From Pseudomonadota bacterium (GTDB lineage: Bacteria > Pseudomonadota > Gammaproteobacteria > SURF-13): a stretch of DNA of 64,000 bases. Every line of letters begins with the position of its first letter. Within the stretch, counting starts at the first letter, position 1. The DNA lies in NCBI GenBank assembly GCA_041695325.1, contig JBGFRC010000001.1, forward strand, positions 7,686 through 71,685, in the 5' to 3' direction. A program made the translations under genes and the position numbers. Below are positions 9,381 to 28,236 of the stretch, one piece after another. The notes under the pieces are model-generated. The model did no database searches and was not told where the DNA came from. It saw nothing but the letters and a program-made list of their open reading frames with translations.

Positions 9381-10310
9381 TTAGATTGCGGCATCCGTAC
9401 AATAGTTCAATACTTTGGTCAAGACATTTGCGTCCAGGCCGTCAAACCACGTCACGCCCGGCTCCGCGCGCAGCCAGGTAAGCTGGCGCTTCGCCAGTTG
9501 GCGTGTAGCTATAATAGCGCGTTTTGCCATCTCCTCGCAATCAAACTCCCCTTGCAGATGCCGCCATACCTGGCGGTAGCCGACCGCGCGCAGGGCCGGC
9601 GTATCCAGGCTCAAATCCCTGCGCTGTTTAAGGTTTTTCACTTCTTCAATCAGACCGCGCCGCAGCATGTCATGAAAGCGCGCGGCGATGCGTTCGTGCA
9701 GTGCCGCGCGCCGGACGGGCGCAAGGGCGATTTTCTGAATCTGGTAAGGCAACGCGGCGCGCGAGGCCGCGCGGTGCAGTTCGCTCATCGGCGAGCCGCG
9801 CAGTTCGCAAACCTCCAGCGCGCGCTGGATGCGCTGCGCGTCGTTGGGATGGATGCGCGCGGCGGAGACGGGGTCCAGCCGAGCCAGGCGTGCATGCAGC
9901 GCCGCCCAGCCGTGTTGTCCGGCCTCGGCGGTCAGGCGCGCGCGCAGGACGGGATCGGCGCCTGGCAGGTCCGCGAGACCTTGCTCCAGCGCCCGGAAAT
10001 ACAAGAGGGTGCCGCCCACCAGCAGCGGAATACGCCCGCGCCGCGCGATCTGCTCCATCTCGCGCAGCGCATCCAGGCGGAACTGCGCCGCCGAATAAGC
10101 TTCGGCCGGATCGCGGATATCTATCAAGCGATGCGGGGCGCGCGCCAATGTTTCGGGCGGCGGCTTGGCGGTGCCGATGTCCATGCCGCGGTACACCATG
10201 CCGGAGTCCACGCTGATGATGTCGCACGGCAGCCGCTCGGCCAAACTCAACGCAAGCTCGGTCTTGCCGGAGGCGGTCGGCCCCATTAAAAAGATGGCGG
10301 GTGGCAACAT
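9381..10310 (-). CDS. miaA: tRNA dimethylallyltransferase
   Basis: P-loop [10 protein letters not shown]; start placed at internal Met [17 protein letters not shown] (complement of 10308-10310). The longer track ORF would overlap mutL by 76 nt. Confidence 0.9.
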
Positions 10311-10360: not shown

Positions 10361-12154
10361 TTACCGCCCCCTCATGAACAGCTTGTCCAGCGCCGTCATA
10401 TCGAGCTGCACCCAGGTAGGGCGGCCGTGGTTGCACTGGTTGCTGCGCGAGGTAGCTTCCATATCGCGCAGCAGTGCGTTCATCTCCGCAATGCTGAGCT
10501 TGCGTCGCGCGCGCACCGCGGTGTGACAGGCCATGCCCGCCAGGATTTCGTTCATCTGTTCACCCGGGCGCGCGCTGGTTCCGTACGCGGCAATGTCCGC
10601 CAGCGCGTCGCGCAGCAGCGCGGCGGCGTCCGCGTCGCCGAGCAGCGCCGGGACCTGGCGGATCAGGAGCGCCTCCGGCCCGGCTCGGCTGATTTCAAAA
10701 CCCAGTTTGTTTAACAGCGCGCCGTGCCGCTCCGCGAGCTCGGCCTCATGCTCGCTCACGTTCACGCTGACCGGCACCAGCAGCGGTTGCGCGCGCACGC
10801 CTTCGCCTTGCAGCGCCTGCTTCAGGCGTTCATACACCACGCGCTCGTGCGCGGCGTGCATGTCCACCAGCACCAGGCCGCTCTTGTTCTCGGCCAGGAT
10901 ATAGATGCCCTGTAATTGCGCCAGCGCATAACCCAGCGGCGGCATATCTTGCGGTGCGGCGGCTTCCCGTATCGGCTCCAACGACGGCATGCCGTGCAAA
11001 ATGTTGTAGGCGCTGATCTGCTCACGCACCTGTGATGCGTTGGGGTGCAGCGGCATGGCGGTTTGCTGCGCGTGTTGCACATGGAACGCGGCTGCCGGCG
11101 GCGCGGCGGAAACGGTCTGGCCCGCGCGCGTCCCGGCCAGTGCCTGCTGCACGGCGCGATACAGAAAATCGTGCGCCAGACGCGCGGTGCGAAAACGCAC
11201 TTCATGCTTGGCCGGATGAACGTTCACATCCACCTCTTCCGGCGGCAGGATAAAGTAGAGCACATAGGCCGGGTGGCGCCCCTGATACAGCACGCCCTGG
11301 TAAGCCTGGCGCAGCGCGTGGCTCACCAGCTTGTCGCGGATCAGGCGCCCGTTGAGATAAAAATACTGCATGTCAGCCTGGCTGCGCGAGAAGGTGGGCA
11401 GGCTGATCCAGCCTCTCACGCGCAACGGCCCGGCCCCGAATTCCATGCCGAGCGCCTGCGCCATGAAACTCTCTCCGCACAGCGCGGCCACGCGCCGCTC
11501 TATTCCTTCCTCGGCGCGCAACGTGAACACCGTGCGCTCGTGGTGGCGCAGCGTGAAGTCCGTATCGGCGCGCGACAAGGCCAGGCGCTTGACCGTCTCG
11601 TGCAGGTGCTCAAACTCGGTCTGCTCGCTCCTGAGAAACTTGCGCCGCGCGGGAATGTTATAAAACAGATCGCGCACCTCCACCGTGGTGCCGACGGGGT
11701 GCGGCGTAGGACGCGGCGCGCCGGTTTCGCCGCCGGCGATGGTCCAGCCGTTGGCGTCTTCCGCGCTGCGCGAGGCGAGTGTAAGACGTGACACGGAACA
11801 GATGCTGGGCAGCGCCTCGCCGCGGAAGCCGAGGCTCTGGACCCGTTCCAGGTCGCCCAAGGTTTGTATTTTGCTGGTGGCGTGACGGCTCAGGGCCAAG
11901 GCTAGATCGTTCCTGCGGATACCGCAGCCGTCGTCGCGCACCCGCATCAGGCGCATGCCGCCCTGCTCCACTTCGATTTCGATCCGGCGCGCGCCCGCGT
12001 CCAGGCTGTTCTCCAGCAACTCTTTCATAACCGAAGCCGGGCGCTCCACCACCTCACCGGCGGCGATCTGGCCTATGAGCACATCGGGCAGGCGCTGTAT
12101 GCGTGGAATTTCCGACAACGGTGTACCTCTTGGTAAGGCCGCTTTGACCCTCAC
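10361..12154 (-). CDS. mutL: DNA mismatch repair endonuclease MutL
   Basis: GHKL ATPase motif [27 protein letters not shown], 597 aa. Confidence 0.95.
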
Positions 12155-12203
12155 AGTATAAGGTCAAATCTCCCGCTTTCTAAGAGGCATATTCGGTAGA
12201 CTG

Positions 12204-13412
12204 TTACAGACGGCGCGCGGAAGTATTCGGACCTTCCTCCTGCGCCACGGTGCGCCGGTGCTGGGCCTCCTCGGCCAGCACCGTACCGGGCGGGGCCTTG
12301 CGGGCGAAATACTCACGCACTCCTTTCATCACGGCTTGTGCGAACTTTTCCTGGCGGCGAGGATCGCGCAACTTTTTTTCTTCAAGCGGATTGGAGATAA
12401 ATGCGGTCTCGACCAGAACGGACGGCACGTCCGGCGACTTCAGCACCACGAACCCGGCCTGCTGTACTTGCGGTTTGTGCAGGTCGCCCACGGCGCCCAG
12501 CTCTTTCAATATACTGGACGCCACGTCGTGACTGGCCTCTATCGTCGCAGTCTGCGACAGGTCGAGCAGCACCGAGGCAAGCAAATCGTCCTTGTCGTCC
12601 AGGCTCACGCCCCCCACGAGATCAGCGGCGTTTTCGCGTTCAGCGAGCCAGTGCGCGACCTCGCTGGTGGCGCCGCGTTCAGACAGGGTAAACACCGAGG
12701 ATCCGCGCGCTTCGGGGCGGAGAAAGGCGTCGGCGTGTATGGACACGAATAGATCGGCCTTGTGTTCGCGCGCCTTGTGGATACGCCCGCGCAGGCTCAC
12801 ATAATAATCGCCGTCGCGCGTGAGCACCGCCTTCATGCCGCGCTCCTGGTTGACAAGCGCGGCGAGCTTGCGCGCAATGGCGAGCGTGACGTCCTTTTCC
12901 CTGGTGCCGCGCTTGCCAAGCGCCCCGGGGTCCTCGCCACCATGACCGGCGTCTATCGCCACCACCACGTCGCGCAACGGCGCAGTGGGCTTGGTTTCAC
13001 GCGGCGGCTCCACGACGGCCTTAGCCGTCGCGGCGGGATACAAGTCCACCACCAGACGGTGGCCGTATTGTTTGTAAGGCTTGAGGGTAAAACTCTTGGC
13101 CTCGACGCCAGGCTTGAGTTGCAGCGTGAAGAGAGTGCCGTCCAGGGCGGGCAGGCTTTCGATTTTACTGAGCAGACCCTTCTTACCGTCATAGGCGGGC
13201 AGCGGATTAAGCAGCCGCGCGTCGCTGATCCGGATTTCAATCCGGCCGGTCTGCTGGGTGAGTTGATACTCTACCGGTCCGCTCAGGTCCAGCACCAAAC
13301 GGGTGTTGTCGGGGGCGGGCCAAATGCGCACGCCCTGAATGTCCACCGGCGCGGCGGCCAGTGGCATCACCGTGACCATCAGCATCAACGCTACGCCCAA
13401 GCGTCTCATCAT
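12204..13412 (-). CDS. amiB: N-acetylmuramoyl-L-alanine amidase (AMIN domain plus Amidase_3)
   Basis: Signal peptide, AMIN domain, amidase_3 core; position between tsaE and mutL as in the E. coli amiB locus. Confidence 0.9.
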   Translation of the reverse strand: MMRRLGVALMLMVTVMPLAAAPVDIQGVRIWPAPDNTRLVLDLSGPVEYQLTQQTGRIEIRISDARLLNPLPAYDGKKGLLSKIESLPALDGTLFTLQLKPGVEAKSFTLKPYKQYGHRLVVDLYPAATAKAVVEPPRETKPTAPLRDVVVAIDAGHGGEDPGALGKRGTREKDVTLAIARKLAALVNQERGMKAVLTRDGDYYVSLRGRIHKAREHKADLFVSIHADAFLRPEARGSSVFTLSERGATSEVAHWLAERENAADLVGGVSLDDKDDLLASVLLDLSQTATIEASHDVASSILKELGAVGDLHKPQVQQAGFVVLKSPDVPSVLVETAFISNPLEEKKLRDPRRQEKFAQAVMKGVREYFARKAPPGTVLAEEAQHRRTVAQEEGPNTSARRL

Positions 13413-13497
13413 CCTGCTCCCAGCCAGGGTTTGCGTCAGCCTACTCTATAAAAAAATATTTTGCAACTATTTTATATGGTTACAGTTTAAACTTCGA

Positions 13498-13980
13498 CTA
13501 ATTTGATGATTGTGGCTGCCAGCCCGCCATGGTACGCAGTATTTCCTCGCCTCGCGCCGTTTTTGCATTTAAATTCAATGACCTACCTTTGTTGACCCAG
13601 GCTAGTGCCAGTGCAATATCCGGCTCCGGCAGCACGCCCTCGCCCCGCTCCGGCCATTCGAGCAGGCAGATGGCACGGGGAGCAAAATAGTCTTCCAGCC
13701 CCATGGCCGTCAATTCGGATGGGGAATTAATTCTATATAAATCAAAATGGTATATTGTTATATCGGCAAGCTCATAGGGCTCAACCAAGGTAAACGTCGG
13801 GCTCTTCACCGCGCCTTGATGCCCTAAAGCACGCAGCACACCACGCACCAGAGTGGTTTTGCCCGCGCCCAGTTCGCCGCTGAGATAAATCCTGTCTCCT
13901 GCGCGCAGTTGCTTGGCCAGCGCTGCGCCGAAGGCCAGCATCACGGCCTCGTCCGCTATCACATAGTGTGTTTCAGGCAC
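13498..13980 (-). CDS. tsaE: tRNA threonylcarbamoyladenosine biosynthesis ATPase TsaE
   Basis: LSGELGAGKTTLVRGVL...SPTFTLVEPY, the YjeE family. Confidence 0.9.
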   Translation of the reverse strand: MPETHYVIADEAVMLAFGAALAKQLRAGDRIYLSGELGAGKTTLVRGVLRALGHQGAVKSPTFTLVEPYELADITIYHFDLYRINSPSELTAMGLEDYFAPRAICLLEWPERGEGVLPEPDIALALAWVNKGRSLNLNAKTARGEEILRTMAGWQPQSSN

Positions 13981-15451
13981 GATTCACCAGCATGCGCAAA
14001 GGCGCGAACAAATCGCTCGCCAGCAGCCCGCGCTCGCCGCGCTGTGCCGCTTCGTCGCCCGCCTGCGCGTGCAGATGCACACCCAGCCGCGCGGCATCGG
14101 CCAGGGTGATGCCTTGCACGGTCAAGCCTGCAATGACGCCGGTCAACACGTCACCCACGCCTGCGCTCGCCATGCTGGGATTGCCCGCGGTACACACGCT
14201 GACCGCTCCATCTCCAGCGGCAATCAACGTGCCCGCGCCTTTCAGCACTGCGACGCCGCCGTACTGCGCACGCAGTTGCCGCACGGCGTAATAACGATCA
14301 CGCTGAATCACGCTGCCCGCGCAATTCAGTAAACGCCCCGCTTCCCCGGGATGCGGCGTCAATATCCAGTCAGCCCGCGTTTGCGGGTGCTGCGCGAGCA
14401 GATTGAGCGCGTCGGCATCCACCACCAAGGGCAAAGAAGTCCGCAACACGGCGTTGAACAACTCGACCGCCCAAGGCGACAGGCCGAGGCCGGGGCCGAT
14501 GGCAACCGCGTCCACCTTTTCCAGCAAGAGCTGCAACTGCTCCGCGTTCTCCACCCCATGACACAACAGCTCCGGGCGCTGAGCGCAGAGTGCCGAGGCA
14601 TGCGATGTGCGCGTGGCGACATAAACCAATCCGGCCCCGGCGCGCGCCGCGGCCTCGCCCGCGAGACGCGCTGCGCCCGCCATGCCGTGATCGCCGCCGA
14701 TCACCAGCACGCGCCCGTAATCGCCTTTGTGCGAGTCGCGCGCGCGCAGCTTGAGCCGCGGTAAATTCTCTGCCGCGAGTCTTACCGCGGCAGGCGTGGC
14801 GCGCTGAACGATCTCCTGCGGCACGCCTAAATCATCCAGCACGATCTTGCCGCAATGATCCGGCGCCGCGCCGGTGAACAAACCCTGCTTGAGGGCGAGA
14901 AAACTGACGGTGACGCTCGCGCGCACCGCCGCACCGTGCACCGCGCCGGTGTCCGCATCCAGGCCGGAAGGAACATCGAGCGCCAGCACGTGCTTGTGCG
15001 CATGATTAATCGCCCTGATCGCTTCGCGCCACGCGCCACTCACCTCCCGATCCAGCCCGATGCCAAACAGCGCATCCACAATCAGCTCGGCGTCTTTGAG
15101 CCGCACCGCGGAAAACGGCGTTACTTCTACGCCCGCCGCGCGCAATGCCTCATACGCCGCCTGCGCATCCCCGCGCAGCGCGCCCTCCTCCCCCGCCTGC
15201 AATACGCACAGCTCCAGCCCGGCCTCATGCGCCAGCCGCGCCGTCACAAACCCATCGCCGCCGTTATTCCCCGTGCCGCACACCAAGACGATGCGCCGTG
15301 CCTTGGGCCAATGCGCGCGCAGCGTCTCAAACGCTGCACGCCCTGCGCGCTCCATCAGCATCGCGCCCGGAATGCCGTATTCCTCGATGGCGATACGATC
15401 AAACTCCCGCACTTGCGCGGCGCGGTATAAGTTGACAGGAAGATCAGACAT
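13973..15451 (-). CDS. nnr: bifunctional NAD(P)H-hydrate repair enzyme (epimerase/dehydratase)
   Basis: 492-aa fused YjeF-N/YjeF-C domains; 8-nt overlap with tsaE. Confidence 0.9.
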   Translation of the reverse strand: MSDLPVNLYRAAQVREFDRIAIEEYGIPGAMLMERAGRAAFETLRAHWPKARRIVLVCGTGNNGGDGFVTARLAHEAGLELCVLQAGEEGALRGDAQAAYEALRAAGVEVTPFSAVRLKDAELIVDALFGIGLDREVSGAWREAIRAINHAHKHVLALDVPSGLDADTGAVHGAAVRASVTVSFLALKQGLFTGAAPDHCGKIVLDDLGVPQEIVQRATPAAVRLAAENLPRLKLRARDSHKGDYGRVLVIGGDHGMAGAARLAGEAAARAGAGLVYVATRTSHASALCAQRPELLCHGVENAEQLQLLLEKVDAVAIGPGLGLSPWAVELFNAVLRTSLPLVVDADALNLLAQHPQTRADWILTPHPGEAGRLLNCAGSVIQRDRYYAVRQLRAQYGGVAVLKGAGTLIAAGDGAVSVCTAGNPSMASAGVGDVLTGVIAGLTVQGITLADAARLGVHLHAQAGDEAAQRGERGLLASDLFAPLRMLVNRA

Positions 15452-15485
15452 GCAAGCTATGTTAAAAGATGCCGCCTGTTCGTAC

Positions 15486-15723
15486 TAGCAGTTCGTTGAA
15501 AAACGAACTGCTAAGCGCCACAGGGGTGAGCCATGCCGGTGGCATGGCGAACGGACGCACAGGACGTGCGCCCTGGACTTTTCCGCGGAGCCGGGACGGC
15601 GCAGCGGAAAAGTGCCGCATCGAAAATCAAACACACAAGTGTTTGATTTTCGGAGCGAGGCGCGGACATGTGCCGCGCCAAGTGAGTTGAAAATCGCCAA
15701 GGATGGCGATTTTCAACAAACTG
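15486..15723 (+). repeat. ~240-bp multi-hairpin intergenic repeat element, copy A
   Basis: About 95% identical to the reverse complement of 59923-60162. It contains the nested palindromes gcagttcgTTGAAAAAcgaactgc, gccatgccggtggcatggc, cttttccgc..gcggaaaag, cgaaaatcaaacacACAAgtgtttgattttcg and gttgaaaatcgcca..tggcgattttcaac. Confidence 0.8.
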
Positions 15724-15964: not shown

Positions 15965-16507
15965 TCAGGATTTAAGCTTCGCGTTGTAACGCTCGCGGAA
16001 TTTTTTGAGTTTGGGGGCAATGACCATCTGGCAGTACGGTTGATTGCCGTTTCTGGCGTAGTAATCCTGGTGATAGTCTTCGGCGCGGTAAAACGCGCTG
16101 AACGGTGCAAGCTCGGTAACGATCGGGCCGGGCCAGATCCGCGTTGCGCTGATTTCCTGAATCACCTGTCCGGCAACCCGTTTTTGCTCGGGCGTGTGAT
16201 AAAAAATCACTGAGCGGTATTGGGTGCCGGCGTCATTGCCCTGGCGGTTGAGCGTGGTGGGGTCATGGACGGAGAAGAATATCTCCAGCAATTCCCGATA
16301 GCTGATAACGCCGGGGTCGAACGTGACTTGCACCACCTCGGCGTGGCCGGTGTTGCCGGTACAGACTTCACGATAGGAAGGATTTTTTATCTCGCCGCCG
16401 GAGTAGCCGGATTCGACTTTGGACACGCCTTTGAGGGCGGCGAACAGCGGCTCCAGACACCAGAAGCAGCCGCCGCCCAGGGTTGCAAGCTCCGCGTTCG
16501 CAGGCAT
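15965..16507 (-). CDS. msrA: peptide-methionine (S)-S-oxide reductase
   Basis: [20 protein letters not shown]..., the active-site GCFWC motif. Start placed at the internal Met, 180 aa. Confidence 0.9.
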   Translation of the reverse strand: MPANAELATLGGGCFWCLEPLFAALKGVSKVESGYSGGEIKNPSYREVCTGNTGHAEVVQVTFDPGVISYRELLEIFFSVHDPTTLNRQGNDAGTQYRSVIFYHTPEQKRVAGQVIQEISATRIWPGPIVTELAPFSAFYRAEDYHQDYYARNGNQPYCQMVIAPKLKKFRERYNAKLKS

Positions 16508-17106
16508 CAGGGGAGTTCGCGCTGCATGCCGATGAGAGTGAACAATTCCATGCGCGAGGAGGGATTGTTGAGAAACACGCCGTGCAGTTTGCTGGTGGTG
16601 GTCCAGGAACCGGGTTTTTTCGCGCCGCGGTAGCACATGCAGAAGTGCTGGCACTGCATGATGACCGCAACGCCCTGCGGCTGCAAAACCTCTTCGATGG
16701 TATCCGCGATCTGAGCGGTGAGCTTTTCCTGCACTTGCAGGCGTTTGGAGTAAATGTCCACTACGCGCGCGAGCTTGGACAAGCCGATGATGCGCCCGTT
16801 CGGGATGTAGGCGACGTGCGCCTTGCCCACGAACGGCACCATGTGATGCTCGCAATGGCTGTGCAGTTCGATGTCGGACACCAGCACCAGCTCATCATAG
16901 CCCACCGCCGGCTCGAAGGTTTTGAGCAGATGTTCCTTGGGGTCCTGCTGATAGCCCTGGAAGTGCTCCTGCAATACGCCGATCACGCGCTCGGGCGTGT
17001 CGCGCAATCCGTCGCGGTCCGGATTCTCGCCGATGTACTCCAGCAGCCCGCGGATATGCGCCATGGCTTGCTGGTCTTTTTTATTGAACGATGAGGAATC
17101 AGGCAT
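16507..17106 (-). CDS. folE: GTP cyclohydrolase I
   Basis: ...[11 protein letters not shown]...; 199-aa FolE. Confidence 0.95.
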
Positions 17107-17177
17107 GATAGGTGTCCAGTGTTACCGGATAAACGAATAATGGGTTGATGAGCGGTGTGCGCCACGCCGCTACAATT

Positions 17178-17447
<270 letters not shown>

Positions 17448-17508
17448 TCATTTCACCCGCTACTTTTCCAACGTCGGCTAAATTACTATACCTGACTAAA
17501 ATAGTCAA

Positions 17509-18144
<636 letters not shown>

Positions 18145-18189
18145 TCATGCACAGAGCTTGCATCATCCTGCCGGAATACCGACGTCTTC

Positions 18190-18483
18190 ATGACTCGCAC
18201 AAAACTGTTGCCGCTGCTCATTCTGCTCGCCGGGCTGAGCGCCGCTTGCGCCAGCATTCCCTCGCAGGAGATGAGCGACGCGCGCCAGGCGGTGCAGGCG
18301 GCGCATGAGGCCAACGCGGACAAGCTTGCCCCTGAGCCGCTTAACGAAGCGCAGAAACTGCTGGACGAAGCACGCACCGCGCTCGGCCAGGGCGATTACA
18401 GCGCGGCGCGCGCCAAGGCCATCCGCGCCAAAGAAGCCGCGATCCGCGCACGCGAACAGGCGCTGGGCGCCCAGCCTGAATAA
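18190..18483 (+). CDS. DUF4398-like small lipoprotein
   Basis: Lipobox LSAAC after the signal peptide; Ala/Glu-rich helical remainder. Confidence 0.55.
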   Translation: MTRTKLLPLLILLAGLSAACASIPSQEMSDARQAVQAAHEANADKLAPEPLNEAQKLLDEARTALGQGDYSAARAKAIRAKEAAIRAREQALGAQPE

Positions 18484-18519
18484 ACACACGCTCAAGTTTT
18501 CAATCACCTCTTCCTGCGC

Positions 18520-20220
18520 ATGCGCACCTCACAGCTATTACTGCCCACACTCAAGGAAACACCCTCCGACGCCGAAGTCATCAGTCATCAGTTGATGCTG
18601 CGTGCGGGCATGATCCGCAAACTCGCCGCTGGCATCTATAACTGGCTGCCCCTCGGCCTGCGCGTGCTGCGCAAGGTGGAGGCCGTTGTGCGCGAGGAAA
18701 TGAGCCGCGCCGGCGCGCAAGAGCTGCTGATGCCCGCGGTGCAGCCCGCCGAGCTGTGGCAGGAATCCGGGCGCTGGGGGCAATACGGCCCTGAACTGTT
18801 GCGCCTGCAAGACCGTCACCAACGCGACTTCTGCTTCGGCCCGACGCACGAGGAGGTCATCACCGATCTGGTGCGCAACGAAATCCGCAGTTATAAACAA
18901 CTGCCTGCGATCTTTTACCAGATCCAAACCAAATTCCGCGACGAACCGCGCCCGCGGTTCGGCGTGATGCGCGCGCGCGAATTCCTGATGAAGGATGCGT
19001 ATTCATTTCACGCTGATAAAGCCAGCCTGGAAAAAACCTATCAGGTGATGCATGACGTCTATACCCGCATCTTCACCCGTCTTGGGTTAAGATTCCGCGC
19101 CGTGTACGCCGACACCGGCGCCATCGGCGGCACCGGTTCGCAGGAGTTCCACGTGCTCGCCGACTCCGGCGAAGACGCCGTCGCGTTTTGCCCGGATTCG
19201 GACTACGCCGCCAACGTGGAACTAGCCGAGGCCGTCGCGCCCGCGGGCAAGCGCCCTGCCCCACAACAGACGATGCAAATCGTGGACACGCCGGGCAAAC
19301 ACAGCATCGAAGAAGTCAGCGGCTTTTTAAAAATGGATCCCGCCCAGTGTCTGAAGACGCTGCTGGTGCAGGGCAAGGAAGGCGTCGTCGCGCTGGTGTT
19401 GCGCGGCGATCACGAATTGAACACGGTAAAAGCGGCCAAGCTGACGCAGGTTTTCGCCCCGCTGACACTGGCCACCCCGCAGCAGGTTCAGGACGCGGCC
19501 GGCTGCGCGCCGGGATCGGTGGGCCCGGTGGGGCTAAAGATTCCCGTCATCGCCGACCGCGCCGCCGCGCACGCAAGCGACTTTGTGTGCGGCGCAAATC
19601 AGGACGGCAGGCATTTCACCGGCGTCAACTGGAGCCGCGATCTGCCGGAGCCGCTGGTCGCGGACATCCGCAACGTCGTGCAAGGCGACCCTTCCCCCGA
19701 CGGCCAAGGCACGCTGTCCATCGCGCGCGGCATCGAGGTCGGCCACATTTTCCAGCTTGGCGGTAAATACTCCAGCGCCATGGGCGCGAGCTATCTCGAC
19801 GAAAACGGGCAATCGCAAATCATGGAGATGGGCTGCTACGGCATCGGCGTATCGCGCGTGGTGGCCGCCGCCATCGAACAGAACCACGACGCACGCGGTA
19901 TCATCTGGCCTGTGCCCCTTGCGCCGTTTCACGTCGCGCTGCTGCCGATGAACATGCACAAGTCGCCGCGCGTGCAGGAAACGGCGGAGAAACTCTATAC
20001 AGAATTAACACACGCCGGGATTGAGGTGTTATTCGATGATCGCCCCTTGCGCGCGGGCGTGATGTTCGCCGACATGGAGCTGATCGGCATCCCCCATCGC
20101 ATCGTCGTCGGCGAACGCGGCCTCGACGCCGGAACGGTGGAATATCAGAACCGTCGCGACGCGCAAAGCCGGAATGTACCGCTTGCTGAAATCACCGGCC
20201 TTCTGAAAGCGCGCTTATAA
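18520..20220 (+). CDS. proS: proline--tRNA ligase
   Basis: 566-aa class II aaRS with an editing domain and full-length ProRS similarity. Confidence 0.95.
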
Positions 20221-20532
20221 GCCGCTCTCCCTCCAGTCGGCCAGAAACTGCTCCAGGCCGAGGGTAGTGAGCGGGAGCCTGACCGTCACATTGGGCGCAA
20301 TCCTGGCCAGTTCGCGGCCCTGCTTGAGCATGCCTTCATAATCCATCGCAACGACCTCGGCGCTGACCGGGCCTTGCACCATCTCGCAGATCATCGCAAT
20401 CTGCTTATGAAAGCTGATACCGGTTTCCTTGGCTAGCAGCGATGGATTGGTGGTCACACCGTCGGCCATGCCCAACTCCACGGCTTTGCGTATATCCTCA
20501 AGATGTCCCGTGTCTATGGGGTAGCCATCCAA
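20215..20532 (-). pseudogene. internally deleted, start-less copy of the transaldolase/fructose-6-phosphate aldolase gene (paralog of 26240-26890)
   Basis: Its translation matches residues ~5-77 of the intact copy fused directly to the last 16 residues (…VRLPLT|[16 protein letters not shown]). The junction lies at the microhomology cccgctcac. There is no ATG at the 5' end, where the sequence diverges from the intact gene. Confidence 0.8.
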
Positions 20533-20574
20533 ACATCATGCCCAATCTCTGAAGGAGGTCATATGCCGAAGAAC

Positions 20575-20625
20575 CAAGCCTGGCACTGGTTTTCGGGAAA
20601 TTAACGCTCACAACTACCCACACGA
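20575..20625. repeat. 50-bp junction motif, copy 1 (ttcgggaaattaacgctcacaactacccacacgacttccagaagagcc)
   Basis: Near-identical to 26080-26130. Both copies lie between a tal-derived segment and IS630-like remnant sequence. Confidence 0.6.
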
Positions 20626-20673
20626 CTTCCAGAAGAGCCCCAAAATCTATATTCGCGCATTTTTGAGGATCAT

Positions 20674-21327
20674 TCAGCGCGCCGCCGCCCGGGAGAACAA
20701 TCTTCGCCCGAATGCGCCGCCGAATGCGGCGAGCACGGCCGCCGGGCCGAGGTTCCAAATCAGGATCAGCGTGGTCGCGTCCAGGTCATGAAAAAGCGAC
20801 AGCGCCGTTGCGGTCATGGCGGCGACGGCGAGGCCGCCCGTGATCGCGACCGGCGCCGGCGCGAGCAACGCCGCGTGGCGCAGCATGATGAGCAGCGCGA
20901 GCGAGAGCGGCGCGCCAACGAGCACGAGCGTCGCGAAGCAGCGCGCGGTCTCGCCGAGCGACACGCCCTCGGGCCCGATGCTGACCCAGGCGGTGAAACA
21001 GCCGTAGCCGATGGTCGCCACCCATACGAGGAGCCCGGGCGCAGGCAGAAGGAGCCAGCCTCGCGAGCGGTCGGGGAGGCTCAGGAGGAACGCGGCAATC
21101 GCGGCAAGGACGCCGGTCGCGAGCGCCGCGGCGACGCTGAGAACGAATACCGGCTGCTCGAGGCGAAACTCCAGGTCCGGGCGCACTCCGCGCGAGACGG
21201 CCAGCAGCGCGAGGATCAGCGCCGCGAAGAGCAGCCAGCCGGCGGCGCGCACGAGCGGCGGCCGCAGGCGCCGCAGCGGCGCCAGATGCGCGACAAGTGT
21301 CTCGATCAGGTCGGGCGTATTGATCAC
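20674..21327 (-). CDS. DUF1109 (NrsF-family) membrane anti-sigma factor
   Basis: 217 aa, six predicted TM segments, N-terminus INTPDLIETLVAHLAPLRRL, two cysteines in predicted outward-facing loops (GYGCFTAW, ARCF). ATGA-coupled to the upstream ECF sigma gene. Confidence 0.8.
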   Translation of the reverse strand: MINTPDLIETLVAHLAPLRRLRPPLVRAAGWLLFAALILALLAVSRGVRPDLEFRLEQPVFVLSVAAALATGVLAAIAAFLLSLPDRSRGWLLLPAPGLLVWVATIGYGCFTAWVSIGPEGVSLGETARCFATLVLVGAPLSLALLIMLRHAALLAPAPVAITGGLAVAAMTATALSLFHDLDATTLILIWNLGPAAVLAAFGGAFGRRLFSRAAAR

Positions 21328-21947
21328 CGGTCCGTTCGTTTCGTTCCGAGCAGTTTCCGCAGGCGCTTCAACGCGCGATGCGTAGCCACCTTGAGCGCCG
21401 CGACCGACATGCCGCTCGCCGCAGCCGCTTCCTGCAACGACATCTCCTTCAGCTTGAGAAGCTCGATCGCCTGGCGCTGTCCGGCGGGCAGATTCTCGAC
21501 CGCCTCCCGCAGCAGGCGCGCCTCGGAGGCCGCCTCCTGGCAGTTCGCCTCGGGCCCGGCAAAGGTTTCATGCTCGGGTTCGAGCGGCACCTCGCGGGCC
21601 CCCGCGCGTCCGTGCCGGCGCAGCGCATCCGCGATGCGCCGATTGGCGATCGCGACCAGCCACGGGCCGAAGGGGCGGGCAGGGTCGTAGGTATTGCGTA
21701 CTGCATGCACGGTGAGCAGCGTCTCCTGCACCACGTCCTCGACGTCGCTGCGGTTCCGCAGGCGCCGCGCCGCAAGCGAGCGCAGGTAAGGCGTCACCTG
21801 TTCGAGCAGCCGCCGGTAGGCTTCGCGGTCGCCGCCCTGCGCCCGCGCCATGCAGAGCGACCAGTCGAGTTCATGGCCGGCAGGCGCCTCCCCGGCCTTC
21901 CTGATGAGGCTCAGCGCCGGTCCGCGGCCGGGTCGGTTGGATCGCAT
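21324..21947 (-). CDS. ECF-type RNA polymerase sigma-70 factor (SigF-like)
   Basis: Sigma-70 region 2 (DVVQETLLTVHAVRNTYDPARPFGPWLVAIANRR) and region 4 (LPAGQRQAIELLKLKEMSLQEAAAASGMSVAALKVATHRALKRLR). Start ambiguous: 21947 (MRSN...) or 21851 (MARAQ...). Confidence 0.85.
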   Translation of the reverse strand: MRSNRPGRGPALSLIRKAGEAPAGHELDWSLCMARAQGGDREAYRRLLEQVTPYLRSLAARRLRNRSDVEDVVQETLLTVHAVRNTYDPARPFGPWLVAIANRRIADALRRHGRAGAREVPLEPEHETFAGPEANCQEAASEARLLREAVENLPAGQRQAIELLKLKEMSLQEAAAASGMSVAALKVATHRALKRLRKLLGTKRTDR

Positions 21948-22136
21948 GATGGAAATTTTAGCACATGGAGTCGGATCGGGCCGTCGGAAGCGGGGGCCCC
22001 TACCAGGATGTTGATAAATGCCGCATGACACCGTTTTCTTGGCGCAGTGACCGCGCTGTTCTCCTGGGGATGGCATTGTCCCTATGACCTCCCTTAAGGG
22101 GAGTGGTTCGAGGACTTTATCAACACCCTGCTACCT

Positions 22137-22162
22137 GTAACCTTTTGTTGCGCCCCGCCGAA
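22137..22162 (+). promoter_or_regulatory. ECF sigma (SigF-type) promoter GTAACC-N16-CGAA upstream of the DUF2282 precursor gene
   Basis: gtaacc at 22137-22142, exactly 16 nt, then cgaa at 22159-22162, about 47 nt upstream of the ATG at 22209. This matches the published Caulobacter SigF-dependent promoter consensus. Confidence 0.55.
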
Positions 22163-22208
22163 CTTCCTGTCGCGGCCCCGATCCCGGGGCCTTCTACAGG
22201 AGGAAAAC

Positions 22209-22505
22209 ATGGATCAGAAAGGCATTGTCGCGGCGGCGATCGCCGGCCTGTTCGCGCTGGGTGCGGCGACGGGTTCCGCGCTGGCGCAGGACAAGAAGGA
22301 GATGGAAAAGTGCTGGGGCGTGGTAAAGGCCGGCCAGAATGACTGCGGCAGCAACGCGACCGCGCATGCGTGTGCCGGGCAGTCGAATAAGGACTACGAC
22401 CCGAACGACTTCAAGGCGGTGAAAACCGGCACCTGCATCCAGATGGGCGGGAGCCTGAAGCAGGGCGAGCCGGGCGAGCTGGCCAAGAAGCACTTCAAGG
22501 GCTGA
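22209..22505 (+). CDS. DUF2282 bufferin-type precursor peptide (BufA-like), Sec signal peptide
   Basis: Signal peptide [26 protein letters not shown]. Core [26 protein letters not shown]...[10 protein letters not shown] has four Cys in the conserved DUF2282 arrangement. Strong RBS aggagg. Confidence 0.85.
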
Positions 22506-22515
22506 AGAGCGCGGC

Positions 22516-23370
22516 ATGAGCGCAGTCGCGGTTTCAGGCAGCGGCCCGCAGGGACTCGGGCCGGGGATCGGGCTGCGCGCGCCGCACTATCGCGCTTTCC
22601 TCGAGGCGCGCCAGCCTGTTGGCTGGGTCGAGGTCCACAGCGAGAACTACTTCGGGCAGGGCGGCTACCACCGGCACGTGCTCGAACGCGTGCGCGCCGA
22701 TTACGCCGTCAGCCTGCACGGGGTCGGGCTCGGCATCGGCTCCGCGGAGGGCTACCGCGAGCGCCACCTGAGGCGGCTGCGCTCGCTCGCGCGGTGGATC
22801 GAGCCGGTTTTCGTCTCCGAGCACTTGTGCTGGGGGGCGGCGTCCGGCCGGCACTTCAACGACCTGCTGCCGCTCGCCTACGGCCGGGAGGCGCTTGCAC
22901 TAGTGAGCGCGCGCGTCGAGCGCGCGCAGGAACTCCTCGGCCGGCGCCTGCTGATCGAGAACGTCACGGCGTATCTCGAGTTCGCCGGGCAGGAGATGGC
23001 CGAGGCCGAATTCATCGCCGAACTCGCGCACCGCACGGGCTGCGGCGTGCTGCTCGACGTGAACAACCTGTACGTGAATCAGCTTAACCACGGCGGCGAT
23101 GCGCTCGCTGCCCTGCGCACGCTCCCCGCGGGCTGCGTCGAGGAGATCCACCTTGCCGGCCATCTGGTCACCGAGGACTGCGTGATTGACCACCACGGCG
23201 CTCGCGTCGCCGAGCCCGTGTGGCGGCTCTACAAGGCCGCCCTCGAGCGCTTCGGTCCGGTCCCGACGCTGATCGAATGGGATACCGACATCCCGGAGCT
23301 TGCGGTGCTGCTCGATGAGGCCGCGCGCGCCGGCCGGTGCATGGGGGAACGCCTTGGCCTCGCTGCTTGA
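22516..23370 (+). CDS. DUF692 / MNIO-family (multinuclear non-heme iron oxidative) enzyme (BufB-like)
   Basis: 284 aa, TIM-barrel DUF692 signature ...VEVHSENYF..., [14 protein letters not shown]. Immediately follows the precursor gene. Confidence 0.85.
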
Positions 23371-24139
23371 GTTGCAGCGCGGCTTCGGGTCCGCGCTCGC
23401 CGACGCCGCGGGCGCAGCGCGCTCGGCCGCGCTTTTCCGCGGTCCGCCCGAGCGCGCGCTCGCGCGCCTCGCCGTGTATCGCGGCAACGTCTTCGGCAAC
23501 TGTTCGAAAGCGCTCGCCGGCGCGTATCCGATCGTTCGCAAGATCGTGGGCGAGGAATTCTTCGAGGACCTCTCACGCGCCTACTGGCGCTCGCGGCCTT
23601 CGGTGAGCGGCGACCTGAACGAGTACGGCCGCGGCTTCGATGCGTTCCTCGCAGGCTGCGCGCAGGTGCAGGACCTGCCGTATCTGCCGGACGTCGCGCA
23701 CATGGAGTGGCTCGCGCACCGCGCCTACTACGCCGCGGACAGCGCGCGCTTCGATCCCTCGCGCCTTGCGGCGCTGCCGCCGGAGCGCCATCCGGGCCTG
23801 CGCCCGGTGCTCGCCCGCGCCTGCGCGCTGTTCGAGTCGCACTGGCCGCTGGCACGGATCTGGGAGGTACACCAGGACGACTACACGGGCGAGATCAACG
23901 TTGATCTCGGCGCGGGCGGCGAGCGCATACTGGTGCACCGCCCGGCCTGGCGCGCCGTGGTCATCGGGCTCGGCGCCGCGGACCATGCGCTGCTCTGCGC
24001 CATCCGCGACGGCCTAGCGCTGGGGCCAGCGCTCGAGGCGGCGCTCGCCGCCGATCCCGCCTACGGCCCGTCTGCAGCGCTCGCGCGCTGGGTCGGCGCC
24101 GGCGCGATCGTGGCTCTTGCCGCGGGAGAGCCGCGATGA
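23315..24139 (+). CDS. DUF2063 domain protein (BufC-like MNIO partner)
   Basis: N-terminus ...[17 protein letters not shown] typical of DUF2063; overlaps the MNIO gene 3' end. Start approximate (first in-frame ATG). Confidence 0.8.
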
Positions 24140-24594
24140 GGGCGATCGGCGCATGGCTTCCGGCGATCGAGCGCGTGCTCGCCTGGTTGCAGGCGGCCGG
24201 CCATCTGGTCGATCTGGCGATCCGACTCTACGTCGCGAACGTGTTCTTCAAATCGGGCCTGGTCAAGATCGGCAACTGGGACGGCACCCTGTATCTGTTT
24301 CACGAGGAATACCGGGTGCCGCTGCTCCCGCCCGAGGTCGCGGCCTGGCTCGGCACGTTCGGGGAGCTCTTTTTCCCGCCGCTGCTCGCGCTCGGGCTCG
24401 CCGCCCGCTTCGCCGCGCTTTCGCTCTCCGTGTTCAACGTAGTGGCGGTAATCTCCTTCTGGCACGTGCTCAGCACCAACGAGGCGGCGCTGATGTCGCA
24501 CTTTTACTGGGGCTTGCTGCTGCTCGTTCCGCTGTGCCACGGCCCGGGCAAGCTCTCGCTCGATCACTGGATCTGGCGCTGGGTTTCCCGCTAG
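24136..24594 (+). CDS. DoxX family membrane protein
   Basis: 152 aa, four TM helices, DoxX signature; ATGA overlap with the DUF2063 gene. Confidence 0.8.
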   Translation: MRAIGAWLPAIERVLAWLQAAGHLVDLAIRLYVANVFFKSGLVKIGNWDGTLYLFHEEYRVPLLPPEVAAWLGTFGELFFPPLLALGLAARFAALSLSVFNVVAVISFWHVLSTNEAALMSHFYWGLLLLVPLCHGPGKLSLDHWIWRWVSR

Positions 24595-24624
24595 GCACGA
24601 GGAGCGAAGAGTGGACGCTTCGCC

Positions 24625-25740
24625 ATGAACCTGCGCAGCCTTGCGCTGGCGGCGGCGCTCGCGCTCGCCCCGGGTACGGTGCTCGCGCAGAGCGCGGAGG
24701 ACAGGCGCGAGTGGCCGCGGACCGATTTTTCGCGCCGCACGGTGGACCTCGCCGAGATCGAATCGGGCGGGCCGCCCAAGGACGGCATTCCGGCGATCGA
24801 CCGCCCGAGGTTCGTGGGCGCGCGCGCCGCGCGCACCTGGCTCAAGGCGAAAGAGCCGGTGATCGTGCTGCGCCTCGGGGGCGAGGCCCGTGCCTACCCG
24901 CTCCAGATCCTGATGTTCCACGAGATCGTGAACGACATGGTCGGCGGTGTGCCGGTCGCGGTCACGTTCTGCCCGCTATGCAACGCCTCGATCGTGTTCG
25001 AGCGCCGGGTCGGCGAGCGCGTGCTCGACTTCGGCACCACAGGGCGGCTCCGGCTCTCCGACCTCGTGATGTACGACCGGCAGACCGAATCCTGGTGGCA
25101 GCAGTTCACCGGCAAGGGGATCGTCGGGCACTATGCGGGAACTGAACTCGTGCGCTTGCCCTCGGAGATCGTCGCCTTCGAGGACTTCTCCGCCGCGCAT
25201 CCGATGGGGCTGGTGCTCTCGCGCGAGACGGGTCATGCGCGCCCGTACGGGCGCAACCCCTACGCGGGCTACGACCGGATCGACCGGAGCCCGTTGCTGT
25301 TCTCCTCGAGGCTGGACCCGCGGCTGCCGCCGATGGAGCGGGTGCTCTCGGTCACCGTGGGCGCAAAGCACCGGCTCTATCCGCTCACGCTGCTGGAAAA
25401 GCATCCCGTCACGAACCGGGAGCTGGAGGGCCTGTCCTACGCCGTGTTCGCCAAGCGCGGCATGGCCTCGCCGCTCGACCGCCCGGAGATCGAGCAGGGG
25501 CGGCCGATTCCGGCGGCGACCGCGTTCGCGCGGCGTCTCGAGGGCCGGACGCTCGAATTTGTCTCCCGCGGCGGCCGCTATTTCGACACGGCGACCGATT
25601 CCGAGTGGAACCTGCTCGGCGAGGCCGTGGCCGGGCCGCTAAAGGGCAAGCGCCTCGCCCCGCTCGAGAGCGGCGTTCACTTCGCCTTCGCCTGGCTCGC
25701 GTTCAACCCGGAAAGCGAGATCGTGCGCAGCCTGCCTTAG
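24625..25740 (+). CDS. secreted DUF3179 domain-containing protein
   Basis: Signal peptide MNLRSLALAAALALAPGTVLA then ...GIPAIDRPRFV...AYPLQILMFHEIVND...FCPLCNASIVFERR. 30 nt downstream of doxX, same strand. Confidence 0.7.
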   Translation: MNLRSLALAAALALAPGTVLAQSAEDRREWPRTDFSRRTVDLAEIESGGPPKDGIPAIDRPRFVGARAARTWLKAKEPVIVLRLGGEARAYPLQILMFHEIVNDMVGGVPVAVTFCPLCNASIVFERRVGERVLDFGTTGRLRLSDLVMYDRQTESWWQQFTGKGIVGHYAGTELVRLPSEIVAFEDFSAAHPMGLVLSRETGHARPYGRNPYAGYDRIDRSPLLFSSRLDPRLPPMERVLSVTVGAKHRLYPLTLLEKHPVTNRELEGLSYAVFAKRGMASPLDRPEIEQGRPIPAATAFARRLEGRTLEFVSRGGRYFDTATDSEWNLLGEAVAGPLKGKRLAPLESGVHFAFAWLAFNPESEIVRSLP

Positions 25741-25773
25741 TGGTCTGGTTCATAAATTCGGCAACGTATGTAT

Positions 25774-26075
25774 TCACGCCGCAAGAGGCAAAGGCGAGGG
25801 CTCGGCCGCGAACTTTCTGAGCAGCCGCGTGAGATCATCGCGCGTGAATCGCCAGTCAAACGGCGTGGCCATGCTCTCCAAGTGGTCCTGGAAGCGCAGC
25901 AATCGATCTGCGACCTCCGAAAGGCAGGAGAAGTCGTTGGGGGTAAGCGCCTTGCGCTGGACGATGGAGAAATAGATCTCGATCTGGTTGAGCCAATTGG
26001 TGTGAACCGGACCGTGAACGAGGACCAAGTTCGGGTAGGCCTGGGTCAGGCGTCGCACGCAGGGCTGGCCGCCTG
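25774..26075 (-). mobile_element. IS630-family transposase gene remnant (C-terminal ~100 codons only)
   Basis: Translation ...NLVLVHGPVHTNWLNQIEIYFSIVQRKALTPNDFSCLSEVADRLLRFQDHLESMATPFDWRFTRDDL matches the C-terminus of DDE_3/IS630 transposases. The frame is closed by a stop immediately upstream, so the N-terminal ~240 codons are missing. Confidence 0.7.
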
Positions 26076-26079
26076 GCGC

Positions 26080-26130
26080 GTGTTTCCGGGAAATTAACGC
26101 TCAAAACTACCCACACGACTTCCAGAAGAG
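26080..26130. repeat. 50-bp junction motif, copy 2
   Basis: ttccgggaaattaacgctcaaaactacccacacgacttccagaagagcc. It is followed at 26137-26215 by a second copy of the tal 5' region, including ATGAAATTT and then a stop. Confidence 0.6.
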
Positions 26131-26239
26131 CCTAAGAAATTTCATCACCACCTCCTGCCTTCAGGCATGACACCGTCAAGTTTCATGCCCAAAGCCAAAT
26201 GATGTTAGAATTTCGCGTTCGTTATGTATAAAAGCATGC

Positions 26240-26890
26240 TTATAAGCCGCTCTTCTTCCAGTCGGCCAGGAACTGCTCCAGGCCGAGGGTGGTGAGCGGG
26301 TGTTGGTACATCTGCTCCAGCACCTTGAACGGCAGGGTGGTGACGTGCGCGCCGATGCGCGCGGCTTCGATTACGTGGGTGACGTGGCGGATAGAGGCCA
26401 CCAGCACCTGTGTCTTCCATTCGTAATTGCGGTAAATGTCCACGATTTCCCCGATGAGCTTCATGCCGTGCTCGCCGACGTCATCCATTCTGCCCACAAA
26501 GGGTGACACAAACGCCGCTCCCGCCTTGGCGGCGAGGATGGCCTGCGCGGCGGAAAAGCACAAGGTGGCGTTGACCATCACACCCTCCTTGCTCAACACC
26601 GAGCAGGCGCGCATGCCGTCAGGCGTGAGCGGGAGTTTGACCGCGACGTTGGGCGCGATTTTGGCCAGCTCGCGGCCTTGTTTCAACATCCCCTCGTAAT
26701 CCGTTGCCACCACTTCAGCGCTGACCGGGCCTTGCACCATCTCGCAGATCATCGCAATCTGCTTATGAAAGCTGATACCGGTTTCCTTGGCTAGCAGCGA
26801 TGGATTGGTGGTCACACCGTCAGCCATGCCCAGTTCCACGGCCTTGCGAATATCCTCCAGATGTCCCGTGTCTATAAAAAATTTCATCAC
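26240..26890 (-). CDS. fructose-6-phosphate aldolase / transaldolase (TalC/Fsa subfamily)
   Basis: 216 aa MMKFFIDTGHLEDIRKAVELGMADGVTTNPSLL..., the short transaldolase family. Intact paralog of the pseudogene at 20215-20532. Confidence 0.9.
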   Translation of the reverse strand: MMKFFIDTGHLEDIRKAVELGMADGVTTNPSLLAKETGISFHKQIAMICEMVQGPVSAEVVATDYEGMLKQGRELAKIAPNVAVKLPLTPDGMRACSVLSKEGVMVNATLCFSAAQAILAAKAGAAFVSPFVGRMDDVGEHGMKLIGEIVDIYRNYEWKTQVLVASIRHVTHVIEAARIGAHVTTLPFKVLEQMYQHPLTTLGLEQFLADWKKSGL

Positions 26891-26982
26891 CGCCCCCTGC
26901 CTCCAGGCGTTACACAGTCAAGCTTCATGCTTAAAGCCAAATGATGTTAGAATTCCGCGTTTGTCAGCGCCATGGAGTATGC

Positions 26983-28236
<1,254 letters not shown>

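Follow-up and report, generated by a model that had tools for sequence, protein, structure and literature searches.

Introduction

Buf1-type bufferins derive from DUF2282 precursors that carry a Sec signal peptide and four cysteines (PMC11626156, PMC12452194), and the copper-binding product contains two 5-thiooxazoles and one disulfide (PMC11626156). In Caulobacter vibrioides, the buf1 locus (CC3252-CC3257/CCNA_03363-03366; PMC3511200, PMC11626156) comprises six genes with the regulators adjoining, in the contiguous order CC3252 nrsF, CC3253 sigF, CC3254 DUF2282, CC3255 DUF692, CC3256 DUF2063 and CC3257 DoxX (PMC3511200). The sigmaF-binding motif, GTAACC-N16-CGAA, and the sigmaF regulon come from the same study, as does the dependence of NrsF signalling on periplasmic cysteines (PMC3511200). 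Metal-induced DUF2282-DUF692-DUF2063-DoxX operons, known as gig-like, have been described in Cupriavidus metallidurans and Legionella pneumophila (PMC11626156). Here, we analyse a locus of this kind in a 64,000-nt stretch of gammaproteobacterial DNA (assembly GCA_041695325.1, contig JBGFRC010000001.1, forward-strand positions 7,686 to 71,685), which we refer to as the window and number from its first letter. An islet at the junction of proS and tal holds seven cargo genes, encoding an extracytoplasmic function (ECF) sigma factor, an NrsF-family anti-sigma factor, four bufferin biosynthesis proteins and a secreted DUF3179 protein. With a probability of roughly 0.8, we read it as a canonical Buf1 cluster with its sigma/NrsF pair and a co-oriented DUF3179 gene, acquired horizontally as a 5.1-kb cargo and working in a Caulobacter-like manner.

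Two further groups of systems frame the comparison. In HvfABC/oxazolin and in methanobactin MbnABC, as in bufferin synthesis, an MNIO enzyme and a partner protein modify precursor cysteines into a copper ligand; the precursor at our locus is of the DUF2282 type, not of the EGKCG-repeat or MbnA type. Betaproteobacterial versions of the cluster are the closest sequence relatives of the islet, and the gig operon of Cupriavidus is presumably adjoined by an ECF sigma factor gene.

Gene content of the Buf1-type cluster

Gene calls were scored against Pfam and NCBIfam profiles. A sequence-only reading of the window had placed seven genes in this interval; every claimed open reading frame (ORF) was present at its coordinates, all profile matches were significant, and the hidden Markov model searches proposed as a check bore out all seven identities. 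The precursor gene, bufA1 (22209-22505, plus strand; PF10048, 76.5 bits), encodes a protein with a hydrophobic N-terminus, predicted to be a Sec signal peptide ending ALA|QD, and with four cysteines, C35, C46, C55 and C76. Directly downstream lies bufB (22516-23370, plus strand), encoding an MNIO (DUF692) maturase that scores 340 bits against PF05114 and 364.6 bits against the NF050167 MNIO_BufB model (cutoff 310). The same protein reaches 219.8 bits with the HvfB model (cutoff 360) and 60 bits with the MbnB model (cutoff 325). The product of bufC (23354-24139, plus strand) is a DUF2063/HvfC-type partner whose N-terminal domain matches PF09836 at 77.9 bits and which scores 49 bits, below cutoff, as HvfC. 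Lastly, bufD (24136-24594, plus strand; PF07681, 59.3 bits) codes for a DoxX membrane protein. DUF2282 precursor, adjacent BufB, DUF2063 partner and DoxX together make up the Buf1 gene set, and the profile scores support the earlier assignment of these genes to the bufferins. On sequence grounds, the locus is a complete, canonical Buf1-type bufferin cluster with a cognate ECF sigma/NrsF pair.

The genes are tightly packed and intact. From bufA to the DUF3179 gene, neighbours overlap or are separated by no more than 30 nt, with bufB starting 10 nt past bufA and bufC and doxX overlapping by 4 nt. All seven cargo ORFs are full length and unbroken. Compared with their counterparts on L166, a metagenomic contig that carries the same cargo, all seven genes from nrsF to DUF3179 gave ratios of nonsynonymous to synonymous divergence (omega) of 0.14-0.51, indicating purifying selection.

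The regulators occupy the minus strand on the other side of the bufA promoter. The ECF sigma factor gene (21324-21947; Sigma70_r2 55 bits, r4_2 41 bits, TIGR02937 87.6 bits), for which an identical 207-aa gene model is called in public contigs, overlaps with its stop the start of the anti-sigma factor gene by 4 nt. The latter (20674-21327; PF06532, 99.7 bits) encodes an NrsF-family protein for which six hydrophobic segments, and hence six transmembrane helices, are predicted. Residues C110 and C130 flank the second loop, which hydropathy and the positive-inside rule predict to be periplasmic, and both are invariant in five homologs, among them those of a metagenomic relative, two Burkholderia plasmids and a Rhizobium plasmid. 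These observations accord with the suggestion of two conserved, outward-facing cysteines in NrsF, the conservation being seen by comparison and the orientation predicted. The Caulobacter NrsF is likewise a six-transmembrane protein with two conserved cysteines. The resemblance extends to the four-cysteine DUF2282 precursor with its Sec signal and to the promoter motif upstream of the precursor gene.

That motif, a sigmaF-type ECF promoter with the sequence TGTAACC-N16-CGAA, lies at 22136-22162 on the plus strand, its 3' end 47 nt upstream of the bufA ATG. It is the single exact match to GTAACC-N16-CGAA in the 64-kb window, where 0.02 would be expected by chance; a search allowing one mismatch added only background matches. 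The motif is conserved in L166. Five nucleotides upstream of its -35 element sits a 127-nt insertion (22004-22130) resembling a miniature inverted-repeat transposable element (MITE). Its terminal inverted repeats are 16 nt long (CAGGATGTTGATAAAT), and a direct repeat of 4 nt reads CTAC. The otherwise collinear L166 lacks this MITE-like element, of which the window and the compared loci contained no further copy. An 18-nt inverted repeat at 22001-22018/22116-22133 was considered as a pair of divergent ECF promoters and rejected, as the comparison with L166 shows it to be the ends of the MITE-like element.

The sequence-only reading had presented the physical fusion of regulators and operon as a novelty, on the premise that in Caulobacter the regulators act in trans. 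This claim fails because the Caulobacter nrsF-sigF pair adjoins its buf genes, CC3252-CC3257 being contiguous, and such adjacency is the norm in surveys of Buf1 clusters. The vicinity of sigF and nrsF to buf1ABCD has been pointed out (PMC11626156), and a 2025 survey found Sigma70_r2, Sigma70_r4_2 and NrsF domains in Buf1, not Buf2, clusters (PMC12452194). The same six-gene unit is annotated on plasmids of Burkholderia contaminans, B. pyrrocinia and Rhizobium sp., one of them adjoining mer genes. Apart from the NrsF model score and cysteine spacing given below, what distinguishes the present locus from that of Caulobacter is the appended DUF3179 gene and the position of the unit on a recently imported gammaproteobacterial islet. 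The core bufferin system and its regulation are already known, and the DUF3179 extension is the only undescribed element.

The DUF3179 gene and its linkage to buf1

The seventh gene (24625-25740, plus strand) encodes a protein that matches PF11376 along its full length (330.8 bits, profile positions 1-292 of 292). It follows doxX at a distance of 30 nt in the same orientation, and no terminator-like site was found in the interval between them. Taken together, the unique promoter, the gaps of at most 30 nt and the lack of a terminator make it likely that DUF3179 would be co-transcribed from the bufA promoter. The gene product has a predicted signal peptide, which together with the full-length profile match is in line with the earlier proposal that an uncharacterised secreted gene is appended to the operon. 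It contains only two cysteines, and these form a C116-P-L-C119 motif. When aligned with 150 diverse representatives of the family, the position of C116 is a cysteine in 146 of 151 sequences (97%) and that of C119 in 143 of 151 (95%); the conserved motif reads T-[FY]-C-P-L-C-N, and conservation reaches 90% or more at H99, E100, N103 and D104.

DUF3179 is a large family, with 10,664 representative clusters at 50% identity, and we know of no characterised member. Searches of the PDB by single sequence and by profile gave no match. Sco1/SenC proteins are periplasmic, handle copper through Cys and His residues, act in thiol-disulfide chemistry and are found in copper and metal-stress neighbourhoods. 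They offer a functional analogy only, in being secreted or anchored and in combining a paired-cysteine motif with a conserved histidine; a fold search predicted for DUF3179 a Rieske-like beta-sandwich, not a thioredoxin-like fold. On these predicted features, DUF3179 is most likely a periplasmic thiol/metal accessory, which might serve in metal hand-off or in thiol-disulfide exchange. The family has been listed among selenoprotein families with a UxxC/T motif (PMC9312934). Neither DUF3179 nor PF11376 is mentioned in PMC11626156, in PMC12452194 or in the supplements of the latter.

To place the gene in its surroundings, we compared seven independent contexts of close DUF3179 orthologs (77-88% identical). 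DUF3179 shares a gene string with buf1 in three of the seven (L166, L169-172 and L181). The layout of L166 is that of the window, with an extra gene for a 118-aa secreted protein ahead of DUF3179; L169-172 have the order bufA-B-C-doxX-sigma-sigma-DUF3379-DUF3179; and in L181, beside mer genes, bufABCD is divergent from sigma-sigma-DUF3379-DUF3179. In L173, an MNIO-DUF2063-DoxX group is found 8 kb upstream of DUF3179. No similarity was detectable between NrsF and DUF3379. Because the two are unrelated, the linkage of DUF3179 to buf1 spans differing regulators and gene orders: it was seen with three gene orders and two unrelated types of anti-sigma factor.

The 118-aa protein of L166 (gene at 9648-10004, between doxX and DUF3179) is secreted, contains a CxxxxxC pair and matches no Pfam family. 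At the corresponding place in the window, 20 nt (24597-24616) replace 382 nt of L166, with the result that the gene is lacking and DoxX is shorter by 7 residues at its C-terminus. A small gene preceding DUF3179 was considered as a conserved partner and rejected, since the 118-aa protein of L166 and a 125-aa protein of L167 are unrelated and have no Pfam match.

Horizontal acquisition of the cargo

Two relatives of the host locus were reached through close tal homologs (90-93% identical). In L176 (GCA_038924655.1), the genes msrA-folE-fdx-FMN_red-DUF4398-proS-tal-icd stand in the same order as in the window and are free of the islet: the counterparts of window positions 16505-20274 and 26241-27678 abut, with a DNA identity of about 85%, and 20275-26240 has no counterpart. 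In L174 (GCA_023484125.1), a close relative of the host, another cargo occupies the tal/proS junction (10989-15577). It consists of five genes, encoding a FecR-domain protein, a 412-aa protein without family, two TPR proteins and a 157-aa protein. The difference in cargo marks the junction as a variable spot, and it looks like an integration hot spot. Elsewhere on the L174 contig, DUF4398-FMN_red-ferredoxin genes are tandemly repeated.

Composition and relationships both set the cargo apart from its host. The GC content of the islet is 0.69, compared with 0.617 for the window outside it and 59% for the relatives, and GC at third codon positions (GC3) is 0.84-0.91 in the cargo genes compared with 0.71-0.83 in neighbouring genes. 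L166 has a GC content of 0.70 throughout and unrelated flanks (ccm and nir genes). The cargo common to it and the window spans 5.07 kb, from the nrsF stop to the DUF3179 stop exactly, in shared segments of 88.6%, 94.5% and 85.5% DNA identity. Named homologs of the DUF3179 protein (74-88% identical) are encoded by metagenome-assembled genomes (MAGs) labelled Burkholderiales or Betaproteobacteria, and NrsF homologs at 62-68% identity reside on Burkholderia and Cupriavidus plasmids. The housekeeping genes of the host are gammaproteobacterial, and none of the matches found for its ProS exceeded 76% identity. The 5.1-kb cargo was acquired horizontally by the gammaproteobacterial host, and its donor was probably a high-GC, Burkholderiales-like lineage. 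The idea of an inserted islet, for which a comparison of the proS-tal-icd interval among relatives had been proposed beforehand, is upheld by the empty interval in L176, the deviant GC content and the cargo match in L166.

The junctions preserve a record of the insertion. The site is built on a duplicated unit of about 734 nt, which takes in the final 15 nt of proS at one end and the initial 24 nt of icd at the other and is present as two diverged copies. Copy B (26231-26964) is intact and contains the fsa-type transaldolase gene tal (26240-26890, minus strand; 211.7 bits; TIGR00875 288 bits, cutoff 246). In copy A, an insertion of 5,615 nt (20518-26132) follows tal codon 4 and divides the copy in two. 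The larger part (20206-20517) bears an in-frame deletion of 333 nt within tal, and the smaller part (26133-26222, 87% identical to 26875-26964) retains the first 4 codons, the tal-icd spacer and 24 nt of icd. The deletion is clean, with a 9-nt overlap at its junction: 20206-20275 matches 26231-26300 at 91% identity, and 20267-20517 matches 26625-26875 at 89%. The resulting tal remnant (20206-20532, ORF 20215-20532, minus strand; TAL_FSA 62.7 bits, profile positions 3-122 only) is without its first 4 codons and overlaps the proS stop at its 3' end. An internally deleted tal pseudogene had been recognised beside the intact tal by the sequence-only reading, and the 333-nt deletion and the missing codons agree with that description. 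An 8-nt filler, TATGTATA (26223-26230), joins copy A to copy B. Between the two tal copies, synonymous divergence (dS) is 0.56 and omega is 0.05, the level seen for the L174 and L176 tal orthologs. A recent duplication in situ was rejected on these values, which are as between species; a dS like that of orthologs implies that copy A diverged as a working gene in another lineage.

Within the insertion, a 60-nt stretch and a 62-nt repeat (together 20518-20639) are followed by 34 nt, the seven genes, a truncated IS630-family element and a second 62-nt repeat. The 60-nt stretch at the left end had no match in the plasmid database. The two 62-nt direct repeats (20578-20639 and 26071-26132) bracket the cargo and are 92% identical to each other; no match to them was found among IS630 ends, in the plasmid database or in the rest of the window. 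The IS630 element (25738-26070, minus strand) retains the 3' third of the transposase gene (ORF 25774-26058, 94 aa) and the right inverted repeat. Its product is 63% identical to the C-terminus of the IS630 transposase of a Polaromonas plasmid, and at the DNA level the fragment corresponds to the 340 nt at the 3' end of the Polaromonas element, right end included. The right end has as its target the TA of the DUF3179 stop codon (25738-25740), which is TAA in L166 (11114-11116) and TAG here, composed of the target TA and the first base of the insertion sequence.

The block had been described as flanked by IS630, which is true of its right side, where the truncated element lies; no second copy is present on the left. 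With just one IS630 copy, itself truncated, and with 62-nt repeats that fail to align to the left end of the Polaromonas element, a composite transposon based on IS630 was rejected. A T/TA overlap at the tal junctions is possible but ambiguous. The arrangement would be compatible with homology-facilitated illegitimate recombination that brought in DNA of a related species.

The alternatives to horizontal acquisition are that the block is ancestral and was deleted in the relatives, or that it is a chimera of MAG assembly. In their favour, a clean empty site was seen in only one relative, L176; ProS scans of genome and metagenome contigs yielded 160 loci at 61-76% identity, none with proS-tal synteny and none from closer relatives; and repeated tal sequences could mislead assemblers. 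Against them stand the deviant GC and GC3 values, the occurrence of the cargo between unrelated flanks in a 70%-GC contig, the IS630 fragment and direct repeats at the edges, and the severed piece of tal on the far side of the cargo. At 87-91% identity, the tal copies are too diverged to have been collapsed or mis-joined, and identical islet joins are present in a JGI contig, an NCBI MAG contig and a Logan contig. We consider both alternatives highly improbable.

Discussion

By analogy with the systems outlined above, periplasmic metal or thiol stress would act on the cysteine pair of NrsF and release the ECF sigma factor. From the TGTAACC-N16-CGAA promoter, whose motif is itself observed, the sigma factor would then transcribe bufABCD and, probably, DUF3179. 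In the cytoplasm, BufB and BufC would turn the two central cysteines of BufA1 into 5-thiooxazoles; following export of the peptide by Sec, the outer cysteine pair would form a disulfide, and the mature peptide would buffer excess periplasmic copper. DUF3179, with its near-invariant His...C-P-x-C site, is linked to bufferin systems without being obligatory for them.

Several points weigh against reading the locus as a horizontally acquired Buf1 cluster that works as in Caulobacter and includes DUF3179. Each functional step proposed here rests on homology. NrsF scores 16 bits against the Caulobacter-type NrsF equivalog model, which has a cutoff of 300 bits, and its cysteines are 20 residues apart, as opposed to C131 and C181 in Caulobacter. 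No sigmaF-type promoter for sigma-nrsF, with up to one mismatch, was found on the minus strand upstream of 21947, and the MITE-like element separates the sigma gene from the bufA promoter. The termini of the insertion are not inverted repeats. As to DUF3179, three of the seven contexts (L167/168, L180 and L186) have no buf genes within 8-10 kb. The 74 plasmid records of NrsF (Burkholderia, Paraburkholderia, Rhizobium, Cupriavidus and others) have no genus in common with the 21 plasmid records of DUF3179 (haloarchaea, Deinococcus, Thiothrix and others), and the three plasmid NrsF loci inspected, two from Burkholderia and one from Rhizobium, are without DUF3179. Because of the buf-free contexts and the disjoint plasmid genera, we regard DUF3179 as an optional, lineage-restricted accessory with a general association with metal and thiol stress.

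Some of these features could also be taken to mean that the module is a decaying passenger, non-functional in its host. Beyond the MITE-like insertion and the unrecognised sigma-nrsF promoter, there are remnants nearby in the truncated tal and the truncated IS630, and the 118-aa gene of L166 is missing. This is distinctly unlikely, given seven full-length ORFs with omega values of 0.14-0.51 against L166 and a bufA promoter whose -35 and -10 elements the MITE-like insertion left untouched.

The buf-free contexts bear on the role of DUF3179. In L167/168, L180 and L186, the gene is surrounded by mer, DsbD/thioredoxin, FGE-sulfatase, CopD and cation-efflux genes, and a distant homolog in Deinococcus adjoins chrA and a P-type ATPase gene. 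Such surroundings would be expected if DUF3179 were an independent metal/thiol-stress gene that travels in the same islands and has no direct bufferin role. The distant Thiothrix homolog beside GDCCVxC and thioredoxin genes, the inspected plasmid sigma/NrsF-Buf1 units without DUF3179 and the extreme rarity of extra conserved genes in surveyed bufferin clusters (PMC12452194) point the same way. Set against this, adjacency to buf1 recurs with three gene orders and two anti-sigma families, for which inherited synteny alone is an unlikely source. The DNA shared by the window and L166 ends at the DUF3179 stop, so the gene moved within the unit, and its placement a short, terminator-free distance past doxX on the same strand also argues for a connection. 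We hold an independent role to be quite possible, if short of probable.

Two observations on these neighbourhoods deserve mention in their own right. DUF6969, DUF302 and a Sulf_transp permease recur alongside ECF sigma-DUF3379 in L167 (2625-19635), L180 (4875-12410) and L186 (2847-12187), and the buf-free DUF3179 neighbourhood may be a second conserved type of metal/sulfur-stress island. On a Thiothrix subterranea plasmid (L178, NZ_CP133216.1, 1609-5891), a distant DUF3179 gene is divergent from genes for a GDCCVxC (seleno)protein, a DUF4395 protein and a 777-aa thioredoxin-domain protein. This cluster adjoins two cytochrome c peroxidase genes, another thiol/metal redox context.

DUF3179 might instead belong to the regulatory arm, as a periplasmic redox or metal sensor acting on the anti-sigma factor and not on the peptide. 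A 4-nt overlap joins the gene to the DUF3379 gene before it, which encodes a putative anti-sigma factor, in L169-172 and L181, and a sigma-DUF3379 pair lies 5-7 kb upstream of DUF3179 in L167 and L186. Moreover, a CxxC protein could act on the periplasmic cysteines on which NrsF signalling depends (PMC3511200). In the window and in L166, however, the gene comes last in the biosynthetic operon, which is divergent from sigma-nrsF, and the NrsF systems of Caulobacter, Burkholderia and Rhizobium work or exist without it. A sensor role seems unlikely.

A more specific proposal goes beyond the accessory role that we favour. DUF3179 could be a dedicated bufferin partner, derived from a Rieske protein by replacement of the Fe-S ligands with the His...C-P-x-C site, that exchanges copper with the peptide or manages the thiol state of the peptide or the anti-sigma factor; it would then define a Buf1-DUF3179 subtype spreading as a metal-stress cassette. 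We consider this version doubtful and put it forward tentatively.

As the core system and its regulation were known beforehand, what this locus adds is incremental. Bufferins were described in 2024, and the roles of the non-core cluster genes, DoxX included, are still open. A seventh gene that recurs beside the cluster and encodes a secreted CxxC protein is a candidate for a missing periplasmic step, be it metal hand-off, disulfide handling or anti-sigma signalling. The islet documents the transfer of a cassette of regulators plus operon between proteobacterial classes, and the DUF3179 family gains its first testable functional context.

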